DNA of 40,989 nucleotides from Candidatus Jordarchaeia archaeon (GTDB taxonomy: Archaea; Asgardarchaeota; Jordiarchaeia; Jordiarchaeales; Jordiarchaeaceae): contig JAHQXB010000179.1 in assembly GCA_029856435.1 (NCBI GenBank), positions 1 through 40,989 on the forward strand, written 5' to 3'. Every line of letters starts with the position of its first letter. The first letter of the stretch is position 1. Position numbers and translations under genes: made by a program. Positions 12,843-27,008 of the stretch are shown here, piece by piece. The notes below the pieces were generated by a model. It worked only from the letters and a program-made list of their open reading frames with translations, searched no databases and was not told the origin of the DNA.

Positions 12843-13952
12843 ATGAGACAAGTGAAAATTGGTGTTTTGGGATGTGGGACAGCAGCTCATTTTCATGCTT
12901 CAGCATGTAAATACTTGGACAATATTAGGCTAGTGTCTGCCTTTGATGTGAACTATGAAAACGCTAAGAAATTGGCTGATATTTACAATCTAACAGTAAG
13001 CAGAAATTACCAAGACATTATGAAAAATGAGAATATTGATGCAGTCCTCATAACCCTCCCCCACTACCTGCACGCCGAGCTAACCATCACAGCGGCAGAG
13101 GCTGGCAAACACATTCTCTGTGAGAAACCTATGGCTCCAACCCTGGAAGAGTGTGACAAAATGATAAAGGCGGCAAGAAAGGCTGGAGTTAAACTTATGA
13201 TAGCAGAAAATCACCGCTTCCTACCCGCACATCAACTCATCAAAAAAACACTGGAATCAGGGCTAATAGGAACCCCCTTACTTGTAAGAGGTTATGAAGG
13301 TGTAGATGAAACTCCGGATCTTGCAAAGCCTGAACATTGGAAGGGCTCACCAGAAAAAGCAGGCGGCGGCGTGTTAATGGACGCAGCAGTGCACAAATTC
13401 GCCATACTGAATTGGATGTTAGGAGATGTTCATTCAGCTTACTGCTGGCTAGCTAAACAGATTATAAAACTGCAGAATAAGGCAGAAGACAACGCCATGA
13501 TGCTTCTAAAATTTGAAAATGGTTGCGTTGGGAGTGTTGTTGTGAGTGACACGGTGTTTAGCCCTCCGAACAACAGGCTGGAATTTTATGGAACAGAGGG
13601 AACCATTCTGGAGGATCACTCCTGGAAAAAACCGGTACAGATTTTCTCAACTAGTAAGGAAGCTGGCGAACACAGGTACCAGTGGTTCAGCCCTGACGTA
13701 GAGCACGAGCCTTTTCCAATGTATTACATTATCTCATTTAGAAACGAAGACGCACATTTCGCCGAATGTGTACTCGACGGCAGGGAGCCAGACTTCTCCC
13801 CCGAAGAGGCAAAAAAAGCTGTAGAGGTGGCTCTTCTATGTTACCTATCGGCAAAAACGGGTAAAATAGTAACACGTTCAGACATAGAAAAAGTAGCAAT
13901 AAGCAAGGGAACCCAGAGCATAATTGAGGGTTTAGAGAAAATATACATATAA
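12843..13952 (+). CDS. Gfo/Idh/MocA family oxidoreductase (paralog B, close paralog of 206-1327)
   Basis: GVLGCG, LPHYLH, CEKPMAPTLEECD, GGGVLMDAAVH; same C-terminus as paralog A (KGTQSIIEGLEKIYI vs KGTHSIIEGLEKISI). Confidence 0.92.
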   Translation: MRQVKIGVLGCGTAAHFHASACKYLDNIRLVSAFDVNYENAKKLADIYNLTVSRNYQDIMKNENIDAVLITLPHYLHAELTITAAEAGKHILCEKPMAPTLEECDKMIKAARKAGVKLMIAENHRFLPAHQLIKKTLESGLIGTPLLVRGYEGVDETPDLAKPEHWKGSPEKAGGGVLMDAAVHKFAILNWMLGDVHSAYCWLAKQIIKLQNKAEDNAMMLLKFENGCVGSVVVSDTVFSPPNNRLEFYGTEGTILEDHSWKKPVQIFSTSKEAGEHRYQWFSPDVEHEPFPMYYIISFRNEDAHFAECVLDGREPDFSPEEAKKAVEVALLCYLSAKTGKIVTRSDIEKVAISKGTQSIIEGLEKIYI

Positions 13953-14035: not shown

Positions 14036-14362
14036 TTAGAGCTCGAATTTTTTCAAAATTTCCCCGACAAGTTGTATTAACAGGTTTATTATGAATCCCT
14101 GATTTACCATATATCCTTCAGGCGTGCGGGTTATGAATCCTGTTTCCTCAAGCCTACGCGCCGCATTAGTAGCCGCCTGTTTCGAAATCCCCAGCTTATC
14201 CTTTATATCACTGGCAGAAACCGGTTCACTTTTCACGTTCTGAAGCAGAAGCTCCAAGATGGAATACATAGTTCTGGCTCTAGGATCAATTAACTTCTTC
14301 AATATGGTCTTGTAATCTCCCCCAATTGTCTCTCCTTCTCCAAATACACCTTCATCTTCCAT
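14036..14362 (-). CDS. Small winged helix-turn-helix protein (wHTH-5)
   Basis: ILELLL..PVSASDIKDKLGISKQAATNAARRLEETGFI...GYMVN; GGAGG upstream of ATG; C-terminal hydrophobic helix. Confidence 0.8.
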   Translation of the reverse strand: MEDEGVFGEGETIGGDYKTILKKLIDPRARTMYSILELLLQNVKSEPVSASDIKDKLGISKQAATNAARRLEETGFITRTPEGYMVNQGFIINLLIQLVGEILKKFEL

Positions 14363-14714
14363 TTGTCAAACCTCCAACACATTGAGTTAAATTTTAAATC
14401 ATAAACTATAATTCCTCTTGTTTTCTTTTCCCTACTCTTTATCCCCTTTAATCAGTGTTTATCACGATTTCCAGAATTTTAGCCATTAAGGATCTTCTAT
14501 TTGGGACATATCTTCCCTTCACTTGACTATTTGATTGAACCCATATTTAAACTACAAGAAGGCTAATAAACCCAAATCTTTCTATATTTTGAAGGAAGCC
14601 GCCGAGTACACCTCTAGTTTATAGAGAATTTGGTCCCGGGGTGGAAAACGCTCTTACCCGGAAAATTTTAATGGTCTGCAAATTTTTCCACTTTCAAGTT
14701 ACTCCTTCTTGGAT

Positions 14715-15026
14715 TCACCTCCTCTTCACTTCTCTCAATTTTTCAGCCATATCGCTTAGTGTGAAAAGAACCATAGCTAAAATAAATCCTACATTTGCCT
14801 CGTACTCCCCCCTACTCTTGGTAACAAGGAAACCAATTTTTTGCAATCTACTTAACGCATTCCAAGCTGTGCCCTCCGTAATTCCCAACTTTTCCACCAG
14901 CTCCTTAGGAGTCACAGGTTTAGTTGAGCAAAGTATGTACTCAATTATCTGAATGGAGGACTCACCCAGCCTCAATAATTTATTAAACGCCTCCTTGGAA
15001 CTAATCTGCTCTTCATCCTCACCCAT
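14715..15026 (-). CDS. Small winged helix-turn-helix protein (wHTH-4)
   Basis: YILCSTKPVTPKELVEKLGITEGTAWNALSRLQKIGFL..RGEYEAN; 4-bp gap to upstream paralog. Confidence 0.82.
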   Translation of the reverse strand: MGEDEEQISSKEAFNKLLRLGESSIQIIEYILCSTKPVTPKELVEKLGITEGTAWNALSRLQKIGFLVTKSRGEYEANVGFILAMVLFTLSDMAEKLREVKRR

Positions 15027-15030
15027 CCAA

Positions 15031-15330
15031 TCATCCCTTTTCTAACATTTTGATTAACTCCTGCACTTTAAACAGAAGAAGCGCGGTTAACAAACCCAAA
15101 TTAGGTTCATACTCCCCCCTACCAACTAGTCTAAGAAAACCATCTGCTTCTAAACGCCTGACAGTTTTCCAAACACTATTCTCCGTTAAACCCAAATTAT
15201 CCATAAGCTCCTTAGGAGTCACTGGCTTGGAGCTAGTTAGAATGTAGATGAGCACCTTATTTGCATTGTCCCTCATCCTCATAAGTTTGTCGAACTTGTC
15301 AAAAAGATTATCGCTATCCTCGGAACTCAA
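15031..15330 (-). CDS. Small winged helix-turn-helix protein (wHTH-3)
   Basis: YILTSSKPVTPKELMDNLGLTENSVWKTVRRLEADGFL..RGEYEPN; 29/51 identical to wHTH-4 over the core. Confidence 0.82.
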   Translation of the reverse strand: MSSEDSDNLFDKFDKLMRMRDNANKVLIYILTSSKPVTPKELMDNLGLTENSVWKTVRRLEADGFLRLVGRGEYEPNLGLLTALLLFKVQELIKMLEKG

Positions 15331-15357
15331 AAAGCAGCCCCCATTCCTAAATAGGCC

Positions 15358-15636
15358 CTACTCCAAATTCCTTAATCTACGCTCATGGTCCAGCACAAGT
15401 TCCAGAATATCTAGGTTTGAAGTGTAACCAGTGGAATTACCATTCAAGTTAACCTTCGAAACCAGCCCTTTACTAGTCAACCTAGTAAGATACTTTCCCA
15501 CATCGTTGAGCTGCATGCCCAGAATATCCGCTATCTCAACTGGCCTTAAGGGACGGTGCGAAGTGGATAGAAGCGATAGAACCTTTAGACTGCCACCTCG
15601 GAGCCGCAGCACCGTATCGTCTAATAGACCACTCAA
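15358..15636 (-). CDS. Small winged helix-turn-helix protein (wHTH-2)
   Basis: VLSLLSTSHRPLRPVEIADILGMQLNDVGKYLTRLTSKGLVSK. Confidence 0.8.
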   Translation of the reverse strand: MSGLLDDTVLRLRGGSLKVLSLLSTSHRPLRPVEIADILGMQLNDVGKYLTRLTSKGLVSKVNLNGNSTGYTSNLDILELVLDHERRLRNLE

Positions 15637-15656
15637 CCTTGCTTTTCACCTCCCAC

Positions 15657-15953
15657 TCACTTTGTGTATTCTTCAAGACTCTTACCAGCATAACCACTAA
15701 CCTTAGAACCTAAAAGAAAAGTTAGAAACGCCTTACAGAAGGCATAAACATTGACCTCATACATGCCACGCTCAACCTTATTCAAAAGACGCGCCTTATT
15801 CAAATAGTGGATAGCAATATTCGCAGCATTAAGGCTGATATTCAGCCTTTCCGCTATCTCTGAAGCTGATAAGGGTCTACCCTCATCCAACATAAGGTTT
15901 ACAATATCCAAACGTGTTTTTGATCTACCCAAACCTAGTAATTCATCTATCAT
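15657..15953 (-). CDS. Small winged helix-turn-helix protein (wHTH-1; ArsR/TrmB-like)
   Basis: TRLDIVNLML..RPLSASEIAERLNISLNAANIAIHYLNKARLLNKVERGMYEVN. Confidence 0.8.
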   Translation of the reverse strand: MIDELLGLGRSKTRLDIVNLMLDEGRPLSASEIAERLNISLNAANIAIHYLNKARLLNKVERGMYEVNVYAFCKAFLTFLLGSKVSGYAGKSLEEYTK

Positions 15954-16140
15954 CTAGGACGCCTCGAAATCATCACTAATTTTCCCGTAGGTGAGACGAA
16001 TAAACCTGTCAATATTATTTTATTTATTTCTAAACGAGTGGAAGTGGTGGTTTTTGTATGAAATATTATATATCCTGTATATATATTTTATGGTCTTTTC
16101 AGAAATATCCCCTTAAAGCACAATACGCACAACATAGCTA

Positions 16141-16180
16141 CTATCACAATCATTCAAATTTATTTATAAATAATGATAGG
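16141..16180. promoter_or_regulatory. 40-bp box copy 1: CTATCA-N27-TGATAG enclosing TTTATAAA
   Basis: CTATCACAATCATTCAAATTTATTTATAAATAATGATAGG; 32/40 identical to 16326-16365. Confidence 0.6.
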
Positions 16181-16325
16181 AATAAGCTTGTCCTCCGGAC
16201 CAGCCAGCAGACCAGTAAAATTGTTCAAAAAGCATCCAAACTTTCCCCAAAACATCATACTTTCTTCTTTTTTGCTCCTGCCACTTTAACAATTTTAAGA
16301 AAGTTTTTTCAGTAAATGAGAAGTC

Positions 16326-16365
16326 CTATCACAAAAATCGCATTTTATTTATATATTATGATAGG
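16326..16365. promoter_or_regulatory. 40-bp box copy 2: CTATCA-N27-TGATAG enclosing TTTATATA, upstream of herA
   Basis: CTATCACAAAAATCGCATTTTATTTATATATTATGATAGG; same half-site spacing as copy 1. Confidence 0.6.
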
Positions 16366-16433
16366 TTATCCTTCCATTAATTCAAAAATTTTTTGTGTTT
16401 TCCACTAAATTTAAATAGTGGTTCTCCTATAAA

Positions 16434-18068
16434 ATGAACAAGTTAAAACCCTACAGGGTAATTTGTATGACGGTTGAGGAAACAGGCCTCGAAACATCCG
16501 TGCTGCGAGCCGTTATGAGCTCCGAAGTCGAAGAATATGAGTATTTGCGTTCAAAAGAACAAATCTTGAAGGGCGCCTCTCCCGTAGGTTTCGTAACAAG
16601 TCCAACCAGCACTAAAAAGTGCGATTTCGCAGTCTTCGACTACGCCACGGATTATGTTTATGAGGGCCAACTCCTCACCGTCAGCCACCAAAAAACTAAA
16701 GTAATCGGGCTAGTTTCAAACCTTTTCGCTGCCACAAGAGGGGCAACCACAGACGTTTTGAACTACTTCTCCAGCCTTTACGGTGAAGTACCCCGACTAG
16801 ATCAAAATATGAAGTTCGGCGAACTCCGCATATATGGAATTCCCGCCCATCCCGGAGTGCGCAGGTTATCCCACCCCCCCAAACCCTGCTCCCCCATATT
16901 CATATCTAACAAGGAAGATTACGAAGCCCTCTTCCGAGATCCCGCTAGGGAGGGAGAATACTATCCTGTGGGTAAGATTCGCGAAACCGATTACCCCGTG
17001 GATCTGGACGCCTCGGCTATACTACGTTTGGGGGTGGGAATATTTGCTCGTATAGGTATGGGCAAGAGCGTTACCACTGCGGCTAATATTGTGGGGTTAT
17101 CCTCTCTGAAAAAGAAAGTTAATGTTATAGTTTGGGATCATACTGGTGAATATGCTACCAGCAATCTGGACAAGTTGTGTAGCAATTTCCAGGTGATGTC
17201 TAGTTTAGAATTACCGGTGGTTCCTACAGATGCTAACGATATTGTTAAAACTCTGGCATTAGATGTGCTTCCCTCTCAGGCTAGGAAGGCTGTAGAGGTG
17301 GCGGCGGATATTTTCGTTATGGATTTTACGTGTGGCGCTGCGGAACTCAACAGTGAATGTTTTATGTCCTACGTGAATGAGTGGCTAGACGAATTCTATA
17401 AAAAAGATGGTTCTATAAGCAGCTGGAGTGCGGCCATACGGCGTCGGGTTAAATTGCTGGGTAAAGATATTTTTGCAGGGGGCAGCGTGGATCAGTACAA
17501 CACAATTTGGAAGAGGGCTGCTGGAAACATATTGGTTATTGACGCTTCTTGTGACACATTGGATGCTAGACAGGCTAAGATTGGAACCATTGCGGATTTG
17601 ATTCTTCGAAACAGATACCCGATTCACCTAGTAATTGACGAGGCGAAAAACTATATTCCTGAGATGGGTGGCTCCTACGGTCAAATAACTGTTGGAAAGC
17701 CCTACCTTTCCTCAGGAAAAATAACAAGCCTTTCTGAGGAGGGCCGCAAGTTCGGGGCAAACCTAACCATCATTAATCAAAGAATATCCCGAATCTCAAA
17801 AACAGTCTTCTCAAACCTCAGCACCCTTTTCTGTGGCTGTTTAACAGCAGCAAATGATATGAGAGCCATAGAAGACTACACCGATTTTCCAGAGATTCAA
17901 AAGATTCTTCCTCGTTTGGGGGTGGGAGAGTTCCTGATAGCTGGTATGGCCACTCCGCTGAAGGACCCTCTCTGTGTAACCATTGAAAAGGGAGACATAC
18001 AGCTGGGCTACGGCGGAAACACAGTCTTTGATCTCCATAGGGACTTCGCGGAGAGGAATAGAATGTGA
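16434..18068 (+). CDS. herA: HerA/FtsK-superfamily ATPase (DUF87-type), HerA paralog
   Basis: Walker A ARIGMGKS, VWDHTGEY, Walker B LVIDEAKNY, EEGRKFG (Arg finger), INQRIS..VFSNLST; HAS-barrel-like N-terminus; true start may be the second Met (MTVEE). Confidence 0.88.
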   Translation: MNKLKPYRVICMTVEETGLETSVLRAVMSSEVEEYEYLRSKEQILKGASPVGFVTSPTSTKKCDFAVFDYATDYVYEGQLLTVSHQKTKVIGLVSNLFAATRGATTDVLNYFSSLYGEVPRLDQNMKFGELRIYGIPAHPGVRRLSHPPKPCSPIFISNKEDYEALFRDPAREGEYYPVGKIRETDYPVDLDASAILRLGVGIFARIGMGKSVTTAANIVGLSSLKKKVNVIVWDHTGEYATSNLDKLCSNFQVMSSLELPVVPTDANDIVKTLALDVLPSQARKAVEVAADIFVMDFTCGAAELNSECFMSYVNEWLDEFYKKDGSISSWSAAIRRRVKLLGKDIFAGGSVDQYNTIWKRAAGNILVIDASCDTLDARQAKIGTIADLILRNRYPIHLVIDEAKNYIPEMGGSYGQITVGKPYLSSGKITSLSEEGRKFGANLTIINQRISRISKTVFSNLSTLFCGCLTAANDMRAIEDYTDFPEIQKILPRLGVGEFLIAGMATPLKDPLCVTIEKGDIQLGYGGNTVFDLHRDFAERNRM

Positions 18069-19276
18069 ACAACCTTTTAAAATTCTTGGAAGAGGAGAAA
18101 AGTGGAAGTCGTGGTGGAGAAATTTTCCACCAGACACTGGACATACTTGAGTCTGAAGTGTATCGGTTCTACGACGTGTATCTGAATCTCATAGAGTCAG
18201 TTGAGAATCTAAGTGAGAGTAAGCAGCTTGAAACCCTTACACTTAACACCAATCCCTCAGCCCGAGATGCTGTTACAGTTGCAGTTGACGGTTCCTCCAA
18301 TAGAAGCCAAAGGGCGGGATTGGATCTCATTGTAGTTTCAGCGGCAGGAATAACCTTCAAGTGTAACAATCCCGTGGCACACAACCCCTATATTGTTGGA
18401 AAGTGTATACCTGTTATGGGCCTGGTAGACGAGGACGTGGAGAGGATTCAAGCAGTTTCCCGCCAGTACCTTGAGCGCCTTGTTAGTCTACGTGCACTTG
18501 AGGGAAACAGTTGCGATCTCGTTTTGCTGGACGGTCCCTTCGTCCCTCACTATGATCTTCTGCCCTATAGTCTGGGGGAATCAGAAATTTTCAGCAACCA
18601 GAGTCGAGAGGTGCAACAGGAGTACAAAATGGTTTTCGAAAAAATCTATGGAAACCAGGGCACTGCAGATATACTGGCTGAAAAGCTCTTAGAGACACTC
18701 CATGCTTTTGTGATAAAGTCCCCCCACTCTATGGATCTAATTTCAAAGTACAAGAACGTTTCCTACTGGTTAAGTGGAGTTTATGGCCGAATAAATGATG
18801 TCAACCTTTTGGATTCCCTTCTCCGACCGGGTAATCGGGAGGAGCTCAACATCACAGTTCCCCAAACAAGTGATCTGTGGACAACTCTGGCAAATAGGAA
18901 AATATTCGGCGAACGTTACTCCAAATTTCTCTCCCAGCAAAAGTTCTTCTACATAAAACCCCACCAAGAGGCTCTCCCCATCAGAGTGGAGGTGCACAAG
19001 GACATAGCGGAAAGCGAAAAGCAACTCGAATATGTGTGCTCCGCCATTTATTACCAGGCAAGCAACCTGAACAATGTGCCTTGGTCGCTTGAGTTTGCCC
19101 ACGCGTTCAGCCTCATAGAAACAGATTTACCCAACTTTCTCGCGGACGAGTTATTAGCCAAGATCGTCAAAATAGCCCGGCAGAATAAAATTTCTCCCAA
19201 AAAGTTTTATCGCCTTTTTAAACCAAAACATGGATTAGAGGTGATTTGGAAGGTAAGCAAGCCTAGGGGGGTTTGA
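18065..19276 (+). CDS. nurA: NurA-family 5'-3' nuclease (RNase H-like fold)
   Basis: VAVDGSS, LVLLDGP, FVIKS, IRVE, VPWSLEFAH; GTG start overlaps the herA stop (GTGA). Confidence 0.82.
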   Translation: MNNLLKFLEEEKSGSRGGEIFHQTLDILESEVYRFYDVYLNLIESVENLSESKQLETLTLNTNPSARDAVTVAVDGSSNRSQRAGLDLIVVSAAGITFKCNNPVAHNPYIVGKCIPVMGLVDEDVERIQAVSRQYLERLVSLRALEGNSCDLVLLDGPFVPHYDLLPYSLGESEIFSNQSREVQQEYKMVFEKIYGNQGTADILAEKLLETLHAFVIKSPHSMDLISKYKNVSYWLSGVYGRINDVNLLDSLLRPGNREELNITVPQTSDLWTTLANRKIFGERYSKFLSQQKFFYIKPHQEALPIRVEVHKDIAESEKQLEYVCSAIYYQASNLNNVPWSLEFAHAFSLIETDLPNFLADELLAKIVKIARQNKISPKKFYRLFKPKHGLEVIWKVSKPRGV

Positions 19277-19277
19277 T

Positions 19278-20165
19278 TTGAACAATAAACACTCGGATTC
19301 AATGGGCTTTATCCGAGCGAATAGGGATGCGGTATCATTCACCACACTTTTCCCATCACTGGAGGTAGGGCAAGAACTCCGAAGAAAATTCATTGACCAG
19401 TGCATAAAAAAATTCTGTGAAAAAAAGCCCATCCTGCCCACCCAGCAGATAAGGAAACTCATAGATGTTTTCTACTCCCGGGGAATAGAATCAATCATCG
19501 CTCGAGCCACAAGGCTACTCATCATACCAGCCGAACTACCCGAACTGGTAACAGAAATAACTGGACTAACACCAAACGGTAACGGTTGCCTAAAAACACT
19601 TATCCAAAAAGTCGAAAAGGAACTATCCCCCATCTTGGAAAAAGACGGAAGACTTTCTGCGTTAAAATACAGTCCCCTTCCCCTTGAGGGAACACATCAA
19701 GACTGGAATGAAACCAGAAAACTATTCGATGCCATACTTCACTTCCCCCCACTCGTAAACAAGGAAGAAATTATAAAAATCACCCAAAACATTTCTGACA
19801 ACCCCAAACTAATCATAAAACAGCTCCATGACAACAAAATAATAAACCTCCAAGGACTGGGAAAAGAAACACTCATATGGAAAGTGGGAATACCGCCCCC
19901 CAAAAACATTGTATCCGCCCTAAGAGAAATACGCCAGAAAAAACTAGAAGTGACCACCCTCCAAATTCTGCAGCACCAAACCATAAACCAAATTAAAAAC
20001 TTCAATTCCCAGGAACGCCTAATAGAAACCCTAGAAATACTAATAAAACACAACATACTAAAAGAAGAAGGGGGAAAATATCAGATAGACCAATACCCTT
20101 CCATAAGCCTCGAAGCCGCCATAAACGATGTAACCCCCCTCATCCAACTATACCGCTGCATATAA
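19278..20165 (+). CDS. Hypothetical protein, probable tandem winged-helix domains in the C-terminal half
   Basis: 295-aa ORF 1 bp after the nurA stop; segments KLFDAIL...NKEEII...IIKQLHDNKII and IVSAL...LIETLEILIKHNILKEEGGKYQI resemble wHTH helix3/wing patterns. Confidence 0.65.
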   Translation: MNNKHSDSMGFIRANRDAVSFTTLFPSLEVGQELRRKFIDQCIKKFCEKKPILPTQQIRKLIDVFYSRGIESIIARATRLLIIPAELPELVTEITGLTPNGNGCLKTLIQKVEKELSPILEKDGRLSALKYSPLPLEGTHQDWNETRKLFDAILHFPPLVNKEEIIKITQNISDNPKLIIKQLHDNKIINLQGLGKETLIWKVGIPPPKNIVSALREIRQKKLEVTTLQILQHQTINQIKNFNSQERLIETLEILIKHNILKEEGGKYQIDQYPSISLEAAINDVTPLIQLYRCI

Positions 20166-25922: not shown

Positions 25923-27008
25923 GTGTTGAAATTGAAGCCTTTAGGTGTTGGAATTATTGGGTGTGGTCGAATTTTCGACCTTAATGTTCTCGGCTATCTA
26001 CAGACTGATAAGGCTAAGATTGTGGCTCTTTGTGATTCGAGAGGAGTGAGAGCAAAAAAGAGGGCAAAAGAGTATGGTTTATCCGAAGCTAAAATATACA
26101 GGGATTACAATGATTTACTCAAGGACGAACAGGTAGACATGGTGGAGATACTGCTTCCTCACTATTTGCACAAAGAGGTAGCCGTTGCTGCAGCTGAAGC
26201 TGGTAAACATGTTTCGGTTCAGAAACCACCCGCTATGAATGTGAAGGAAATGGATGAGATGATAAGTGCCGCCAGAAAGGCGGGAGTCAAATTTAAGGTT
26301 TATGAAAACTTTATCTTTTATCCCCCCTACCGCAAGGCAAAGGAGCTAATGGATGCTGGAGAAATTGGAAACCCGCACATGATTCGAATCAAGATGACTT
26401 CGGGCTCCGTGGAATGTGGCTGGGAGGTGCCCTTGGAGGCTTGGATGTGGCGTTTTACTCCAGAACAGTGTGGCGGGGGACCCACAATCTGGGATGACGG
26501 CTATCACAAGTTTTCTATAGCACGCTACTTTATGGGAGATGTGGACAAGGTATTTGCCTGGATTGAAACCACAGAGCTGGGACCAGGCTTATATCTTGAC
26601 TCTCCAGCCATAATTATGTGGAAGTACAAGTCTCCCGGAAAATTGGGAGTATGGGACACATCCTTCGCTCCAGAAATGAAAATTAAATCCAAGTATTATG
26701 GTACTGACGAGAGAGTGGAAATCACAGGGACAAAAGGTTACATCTGGATAAACCAGTGCACTGGACAACTGCTAGATATTCCCTCAGTCATAATGTATAA
26801 AGATGGAGAATTGACACGATTCGAGAATCTTCGATGCGATTGGGCGGACAGCTTCATTGACTCCACCCTTCACTTCATCGATGCCATATTAGAAGATAAG
26901 GAACCAATACTATCAGGAGAGGAGGGAAAAAAGGTTCTCCAATTCGCCCTCGCCGCCCTAAAATCCGCAGAAACCCACAAAGAAGTAAGCCCAGACGAAA
27001 TCAAATAA
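25923..27008 (+). CDS. Gfo/Idh/MocA family oxidoreductase (paralog C)
   Basis: GIIGCG, LPHYLH, HVSVQKP (E to Q variant of EKP), GGGPTIWDDGYH. Confidence 0.9.
   Translation: MLKLKPLGVGIIGCGRIFDLNVLGYLQTDKAKIVALCDSRGVRAKKRAKEYGLSEAKIYRDYNDLLKDEQVDMVEILLPHYLHKEVAVAAAEAGKHVSVQKPPAMNVKEMDEMISAARKAGVKFKVYENFIFYPPYRKAKELMDAGEIGNPHMIRIKMTSGSVECGWEVPLEAWMWRFTPEQCGGGPTIWDDGYHKFSIARYFMGDVDKVFAWIETTELGPGLYLDSPAIIMWKYKSPGKLGVWDTSFAPEMKIKSKYYGTDERVEITGTKGYIWINQCTGQLLDIPSVIMYKDGELTRFENLRCDWADSFIDSTLHFIDAILEDKEPILSGEEGKKVLQFALAALKSAETHKEVSPDEIK

Follow-up and report, generated by a model that had tools for sequence, protein, structure and literature searches.

Why would an archaeon that possesses a HerA–NurA pair linked to Mre11–Rad50 maintain a further pair, and why does that further pair face an array of small genes for winged helix-turn-helix (wHTH) proteins? 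The question is raised by positions 14036–20165 of a 40,989-nucleotide stretch of DNA (contig JAHQXB010000179.1; the whole stretch is called the window here) from a 3.54-Mb assembly of Freyarchaeum (order Jordarchaeales, Asgard; G000). The block comprises a herA paralog, a nurA paralog and a third open reading frame (ORF3) on the plus strand, with the wHTH genes on the minus strand. It has been linked over long evolutionary time to a six-paralog wHTH array and to paired TATA-centred palindromes, and it is universal in the order. We propose, with the case for and against it about evenly balanced, that the block may represent a vertically inherited, lineage-specific, repressor-gated HerA–NurA variant for genome maintenance or DNA processing in Jordarchaeales. 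ORFs of the window were taken from an ORF listing, and families were assigned by Pfam, NCBIfam and PADLOC scans.

The herA paralog (16467–18068, plus strand) encodes 533 amino acids (aa) from the ATG at 16467. The longest ORF begins at 16434, and ATG 16467 is probably the true start, because the orthologs are 533 aa long and a stop codon lies inside the N-terminal extension in G005, the complete SRVP19 Freyarchaeia chromosome from the same genus. The nurA paralog (18065–19276, plus strand; 403 aa) starts at a GTG that overlaps the herA stop codon TGA as GTGA, and ORF3 (19278–20165, plus strand; 295 aa, isoelectric point (pI) 9.1) starts 1 bp past the nurA stop, with a GGGGG stretch upstream; direct reading thus bears out the coupling of the three genes described in an earlier note, which had been made from the sequence alone. 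All five wHTH ORFs of about 100 aa that the note had placed on the minus strand are present, and each matches wHTH families of Pfam. Their orthogroups are lettered outward from herA: wh5 (A; 15657–15953, 98 aa, HTH_24/HTH_20), the first gene of the array; wh4 (B; 15358–15636, 92 aa, HTH_IclR), its best-conserved member; wh3 (C; 15031–15330, 99 aa, HTH_11/HTH_24); wh2 (D; 14715–15026, 103 aa, HTH_11/HTH_24); and wh1 (F; 14036–14362, 108 aa, MarR_2/MarR/HTH_11). They are tightly packed, 4–27 bp apart, apart from a 352-bp gap between wh1 and wh2, and stand head-to-head with herA–nurA–ORF3 across an AT-rich spacer.

This arrangement is kept throughout the order. Besides the genus of the window genome, a second Jordarchaeales family was represented by genomes G006, G007, G009 and G010 and by the locus L046. 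ORF3 occurs in all 10 other Jordarchaeales genomes, which span two families, and was found in none of 30 Asgard genomes from outside the order. HerA orthologs above 70% identity are found in 9 of the 10, the remaining genome being 83% complete with ORF3 at a contig end; among 389 other Asgard species representatives none turned up. BLAST comparison with fetched loci shows that synteny, wh(A, B, C, D, (E), (F)) facing herA–nurA–ORF3, is kept within the genus as well as in the second family. Identity to G005 and to the second family (G006, G010, L046) is 90% and 71–73% for herA, 80% and 52–55% for nurA, and 71% and 34–35% for ORF3; within the genus HerA is 88–99% identical. The co-occurrence that the note had left to be checked was found: array and ORF3 are linked to herA–nurA in every contiguous Jordarchaeales assembly examined, and the array is also present in a distant Asgard metagenome-assembled genome (the WJIK MAG).

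That MAG, represented by the 104-kb contig WJIK01000119 labelled Heimdallarchaeota, is one of just two relatives that the wider protein database adds outside the order. It encodes a HerA 61% identical to that of the block, a nurA gene and wHTH genes, six or seven in number, that keep the order of the array, and ORF3 was undetected in the contig. The other is a 5.4-kb Korarchaeota contig, cut at its herA end, with identities of 39–41% for herA and 32% for nurA. The genes flanking the block in WJIK are merely 27–49% identical to those of the window genome, and G005 and the window have different flanks as well; the block has therefore stayed intact while its surroundings changed. WJIK01000119 has some further features of its own: a 63-aa ORF with a zinc-ribbon-like CPRC...CNHC pattern between array and herA (L060:8606-8797), an extra long-branch wHTH gene nearest herA (L060:7979-8272), and a 205-aa gene past the array without family match.

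The block HerA evolves slowly. Between G000 and G006 it is 72–73% identical, compared with 65% for MCM, 80–82% for RadA and 64% for the other HerA paralog that occurs order-wide (the C108 type described below); in the within-genus rate comparison the values are 88–90% for the block HerA, 82% for MCM and 87–88% for RadA. Judged by these identities, no HerA paralog of the order is more constrained; it evolves more slowly than MCM and behaves as a core gene rather than an arms-race gene. The distribution fits vertical inheritance of the block.

Its surroundings are purely metabolic, as had been described: all scanned neighbours belong to families such as GH57, GFO/IDH/MocA, Fe-ADH, SCP2, DUF362, AFOR, OYE, SDR and trehalose-P synthase, among others. 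No CRISPR-like repeat array or tRNA was found within the window, nor any integrase or defence island. Family scans of the locus revealed no mre11, rad50, cas or sir2 gene, in agreement with the earlier description, and neither the block nor its neighbours gave a Pfam match to a metallophosphatase or to SMC/Rad50. The guanine-cytosine (GC) content at the locus is ordinary. Because of this pattern of order-wide presence, metabolic neighbourhood, ordinary GC and a HerA slower than MCM, the block is better read as a putative core DNA-processing module than as a mobile defence island. The suggestion of a DNA-processing or anti-mobile-element module is partly supported: the HerA–NurA pair is an extra one and is linked to its array, and the anti-mobile-element flavour is weakened by the same pattern.

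The spacer between the two operons contains two operator-like boxes, 40/41 bp long. The proximal one (16325–16365, no strand assigned) reads CCTATCA-N27-TGATAGG around TTTATTTATATAT and is followed by the conserved CTTCCATT. The distal one (16140–16180, likewise unstranded) reads (A)CTATCA-N27-TGATAGG around TTTATTTATAAATAA. The proximal box and CTTCCATT are almost invariant between the two families, and the rest of the spacer is unalignable. The second family also possesses two boxes, of which the distal one has a degenerate half-site and lies some 87 bp away from the start codon of the first wHTH gene. The half-sites with their 27-nt gap and AT-rich core occur at only these two sites in the 3.54-Mb genome. 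A relaxed genome-wide operator search (up to 2 mismatches, gaps of 23–29) returned 67 matches versus 81–99 in shuffled genomes, so that no regulon is detectable this way. CCTATCA half-sites were looked for in the WJIK spacer and not found; it contains two identical 16-nt TATA palindromes 118 bp apart. We regard the boxes as TATA-centred candidate operators, which favours regulation by the array. The AT-richness (31% GC versus 43.7% for the window) and the duplicated boxes noted earlier are thus confirmed, and the length of 480 bp given for the spacer is corrected: a herA start at ATG 16467 makes it 513 bp, probably its real extent. An 85-aa ORF inside the spacer (16058–16315) was considered as a gene and rejected as spurious, having no family match and no BLAST match in related loci, including those with about 99% identical HerA.

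The wHTH array possesses a defined and old composition. A maximum-likelihood tree of 29 members contains six groups, A–F, with support for A, B, E, a joint C+D clade and the window–G005 pair of F. The long-branch members from WJIK and from G111 (a genome from another Asgard family, without an ortholog of the block HerA), including their assignments to F, were placed by BLAST best hits and are flagged as long branches in the tree. Genes follow the order A–B–C–D–E–F outward from herA. G005 carries all six, the second family A–E, and the window genome and its closest relatives A–D and F together with the wreck of E. This remnant (about 14445–14528, minus strand; the C-terminal ~27 codons) is located in the 352-bp gap between wh1 and wh2 and was detected by tblastn with the intact G005 gene (L036:13630-13956) as a 28-residue match, 50% identical, ending at a stop. 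G005, the second family and the WJIK MAG retain orthogroup E intact, and no intact copy of it was found elsewhere in the window genome. The count of five paralogs in the earlier note therefore needs revision: the six-orthogroup set is ancestral, and five is a derived state, E having decayed here.

Conservation differs among the members. The wh4 protein (B) is 74–79% identical between families and 42% in the WJIK MAG; wh5 (A) is 80% identical in G005, 53–54% in the second family and 45% in the WJIK MAG; wh2 (D) 84% in G005 and 59–61% in the second family; wh3 (C) 79% and 48–52%, respectively. The wh1 protein (F) has orthologs in G005 (72% identity) and in the WJIK MAG (43%); within the second family, a search of genus g2 did not reveal F, and in G009 F sits 11 kb from the array. 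The recognition helix carries a distinct signature in every group, and these signatures persist from one family to the other (A, NAxNIAxHYL; B, DVGKYLxRL; C, NSVWKxVRRL; D, GTxWNALSRL; E, SNLSHxG; F, Q(A/S)xTNxxxRL), and all share a C-terminal hydrophobic helix. Their pI values, near neutral with F acidic (5.2 for wh1), do not discriminate between the hypotheses considered below. Best NCBIfam scores are 28.3 bits for Lrs14 (NF040939; cut-off 90) and 20.8 bits for Sta1 (NF053606; cut-off 80), so the likeness to these archaeal regulators is a resemblance only. On contig C21 of G111 a wh4-like gene (40–41%) and a wh1-like gene (33%) stand side by side (L068:9760-10487), divergent from nrdD, which encodes NrdD with an ATP-cone (L068:7362-9554).

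The herA product matches Pfam DUF87 (PF01935) at 48.1 bits (cut-off 23.2), and its NCBIfam HerA equivalog scores lie far under the cut-offs, which marks it as a divergent member of the family. Its Walker A motif reads ARIGMGKS and its Walker B motif VIDEA. Profile alignment with the other HerAs of the genome (hhalign, 99.5% probability) places residues 63–522 onto 26–497, a span that takes in the HAS-barrel region; two of the compared HerAs carry Pfam HAS-barrel matches, and the Pfam model itself does not match the block HerA. The closest other Asgard HerAs are at most 30% identical to it, and its sequence matches in the PDB are weak and confined to the C-terminal ATPase part. The nurA product matches Pfam NurA (PF09376) at 50.1 bits (cut-off 21) over residues 71–332 and had zero PDB matches by sequence search. 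Nine orthologs, including the Korarchaeota one, share invariant D75-G-S, E123, RQYxER, E137, D156-G-P, H213, E309/H311 and LExAH346 (E343/H346); these motifs agree with the ‘DG’ active-site description in PMC13748450, a correspondence at the level of motifs. Both genes retain their ATPase and nuclease motifs, respectively, and the pair looks intact. It is the gene coupling, in the form of the GTGA overlap, that suggests a HerA–NurA complex, which in this family would be a hexameric HerA ring docked to a NurA dimer.

ORF3 is a protein of a narrow family without Pfam match. A profile search of 1.84 billion representative proteins gave only 3 clusters (E ≤ 2e-38), by look the same narrow family; its profile had zero PDB sequence matches, and an ESM Atlas feature search returned nothing above 0.88 and no informative family. 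The N-terminal half is helical. An AlphaFold2 (AF2) model of residues 132–295 contains a winged-helix (WH) unit at 141–201 with H1-b1-H2-H3-b2-b3 topology (predicted local distance difference test, pLDDT, 80–86) and a second helix-helix-hairpin-helix unit at 211–295 with pLDDT of just 50–66. The top Foldseek matches in the PDB are nearly all winged-helix proteins (SlyA/MarR, RPC34, Nse1/Nse3, MecI/BlaI, TFE-alpha), with E ≥ 0.009 and TM about 0.3. The model thus predicts at least one WH domain, and the tandem WH of the earlier note is partly supported: it is plausible, with one unit predicted confidently and the other at low score. When the profiles of ORF3 and the wHTH array were compared, the probability was 3%, with no detectable sequence relationship.

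The window genome carries four NurA loci and several HerAs in total. Contig C144 (L022:7805-15072) contains contiguous rad50 (676 aa), mre11 (416 aa) and herA (519 aa) genes with nurA just upstream. Because C144 has its own herA and nurA, the block pair is surplus to the Mre11–Rad50-linked one; the block copies are not the only ones of the genome, and the separate locus to be checked according to the note does exist. The C144-type HerA had no match at E ≤ 1e-20 in the four second-family genomes. Contig C108 (L023:7142-11194) encodes a nurA–herA pair beside a metallo-beta-lactamase gene, and HerA of this type occurs in all four second-family genomes at 62–64% identity. The pair on contig C63 (L024:3776-7520), which lies near an ATPase_2/DUF234 gene, is enlarged and consists of NurA-like (638 aa) and HerA-like (623 aa) proteins. 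On contig C169 (L025:2261-5255) a single HerA stands alone; its start overlaps the final part of a 494-aa orphan ORF.

The earlier view that the locus is no named system agrees with our comparisons. Literature searches found no description of the arrangement, and the PADLOC matches were confined to generic HerA models and to wHTH similarity with Csa3/CARF C-termini, with nothing for NurA or ORF3 and no complete system. The closest known entity is the canonical archaeal HerA–NurA complex, of which the block is a variant. Like the herA–mre11–rad50–nurA operons of Sulfolobales and Thermococcales (PMC13748450, PMC7690668), the block encodes a HAS barrel with a RecA-like ATPase bearing Walker A/B motifs and a NurA domain with acidic/His motifs, from two translationally coupled genes. 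Unlike them, it is not linked to mre11/rad50, which are located on C144, and it adds the coupled ORF3, the divergent wHTH array and the paired operator-like boxes; its sequences are also extremely divergent from the canonical ones, HerA being ≤30% identical to other Asgard HerAs and NurA lacking a PDB match.

Stand-alone bacterial NurA–HerA pairs of Deinococcus and Thermus (PMC9960219, PMC5448004) resemble the block in occurring without Mre11–Rad50. They differ from it in gene order, herA then nurA and ORF3 in the block, and in host, the block belonging to an Asgard archaeon in which its pair is one of four; in the papers retrieved, no dedicated wHTH array or operators, both of which the block has, are reported for them. 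Anti-phage systems with HerA (Sir2-HerA, DUF4297-HerA, MADS mad8) and CRISPR-associated NurA/HerA (PMC3396285) likewise combine a HerA-family ATPase with an effector nuclease, and the block HerA matches PADLOC HerA models weakly. However, none of their partners (Sir2, DUF4297, mad genes, cas/csm6, a CRISPR array) is found at the block, whose partner NurA is matched by no PADLOC model, and the block, unlike these systems, is universal in the order, syntenic and slowly evolving. The array proteins share with Lrs14/Sta1 and MarR/ArsR-type archaeal wHTH regulators a single domain of about 100 aa and a C-terminal helix; unlike those regulators, they form a fixed-order set of six ancient paralogs tied to herA–nurA.

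We hypothesize that the promoter of herA–nurA–ORF3, with its TATA box in the middle of the CCTATCA-N27-TGATAGG palindrome, would be the point of control. The second box faces the wHTH operon, and one or more wHTH proteins may bind both boxes. Bound wHTH protein would occlude TBP/TFB or RNA polymerase, repressing the nuclease operon together with its own operon, until a signal releases repression of the potentially dangerous nuclease. The remaining wHTH paralogs might add further inputs or targets, ORF3 could act as an accessory DNA-binding subunit or adaptor, and the machine would serve genome maintenance or controlled DNA processing. That wHTH members are individually dispensable, E having decayed here and F being absent or displaced in the second family, fits independent regulators, as does the B-like and F-like pair divergent from nrdD in G111. 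Several observations weigh against this proposal. Six anciently diverged paralogs with their own recognition helices exceed the needs of one operon when one operator type was found, and a single wHTH dimer would not usually span half-sites whose centres are 34 bp apart. The best PDB matches of the block HerA, listed as ‘ATP-binding protein’ or ‘HerA’, carry no repair label and rank ahead of 4d2i, the repair HerA of Sulfolobus (6e-6). The fold of ORF3 is partly confident, given the score of its second unit, and a full-length AF2 model from 8 sequences was unusable (pLDDT 47.7). Finally, canonical HerA–NurA may destroy foreign double-stranded DNA (dsDNA) rather than resect ends (PMC12977600), and on this view conservation as a core gene leaves an immune role possible.

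One alternative is an anti-virus or anti-plasmid module that has become fixed in the chromosome, in which HerA–NurA–ORF3 degrades invading linear dsDNA and the array silences it until infection or itself senses infection. HerA ATPases are the motors of several anti-phage systems. The best PADLOC match of the block HerA is a defence-type model (PDLC04105, 80 bits), the nearest PDB entries ahead of 4d2i are not labelled repair and may in part be anti-phage HerAs, the pair is surplus to the Mre11–Rad50-linked one, and tight TATA-occluding control would suit a toxic effector; this alternative has also become more plausible since an antiviral role was proposed even for canonical HerA–NurA (PMC12977600). 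Nevertheless, we consider it unlikely, as the distribution is not patchy but follows one fixed arrangement across Jordarchaeales (ORF3 in 10/10, HerA in 9/10 genomes), HerA evolves more slowly than MCM, and the metabolic neighbourhood in the window includes no defence island, integrase, CRISPR array or tRNA. PADLOC has no NurA match or complete system to offer, and the similarity to defence HerAs is limited to the generic C-terminal ATPase part.

Alternatively, the wHTH proteins and ORF3 might not regulate the pair but serve as recognition or adaptor subunits that load or aim HerA–NurA, possibly as hetero-oligomers via the C-terminal hydrophobic helix. Six orthogroups in fixed order, spaced by 4–27 bp and keeping their own recognition-helix signatures across families and in the WJIK MAG, would suit such a role, as would a wh4 conserved like HerA (74–79%), the WH domains predicted for ORF3 and the single operator type found for six proteins. 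We find this improbable too: the module persists with members lost or moved (E decayed, F missing or at a distance of 11 kb in the second family), genes related to B and F stand beside nrdD in a genome without the block HerA, a local repressor is classically laid out like this, as a divergent separate operon with TATA-centred palindromes, and ORF3 shows no sequence relationship to the array in profile comparison. A bolder version, in which the six wHTH orthogroups and ORF3 aim HerA–NurA at defined sequences or structures and the palindromes are a natural target rather than simple operators, is quite improbable, on a par with a long shot; if true, one Asgard lineage would have a DNA-processing machine of its own that is directed by sequence. 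That a general transcription-factor cluster merely happens to lie beside an extra herA–nurA operon is barely credible: small wHTH genes are abundant in Asgard and relatives of two members do adjoin the unrelated nrdD, but the head-to-head layout and gene order survive between families at 65% MCM identity and in the WJIK MAG with flanks of 27–49% identity, the block stays intact while its flanks vary between lineages, and the spacer retains conserved paired operator-like boxes.

Three GFO/IDH/MocA oxidoreductase paralogs are encoded in the window at 206–1327, 12843–13952 and 25923–27008, and further redox and sugar genes encode OYE, SDR, BKACE, FAA hydrolase, trehalose-P synthase/phosphatase, GH57, AFOR and DUF362 proteins. 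In a congener (contig C413 of G002, L039:4079-9455), the Fe-ADH/SCP2 pair downstream of ORF3 exists as two tandem copies, 82/87% and 72/69% identical to the window pair.

A 2026 review (PMC13748450) reports four NurA homologs in Freyarchaeum, left unexplained, describes all Asgard NurAs as uncharacterised and names Asgard NurA/HerA as a knowledge gap. Our analysis indicates that one of these four is no redundant copy: it belongs to a distinct, constrained module with an accessory protein, candidate regulators and operator-like boxes, present order-wide. The block offers concrete parts, namely a defined candidate operator, six candidate binders and a three-gene machine, which may be useful for asking whether extra HerA–NurA pairs serve repair, controlled DNA degradation or immunity, a question raised even for the canonical complex (PMC12977600).

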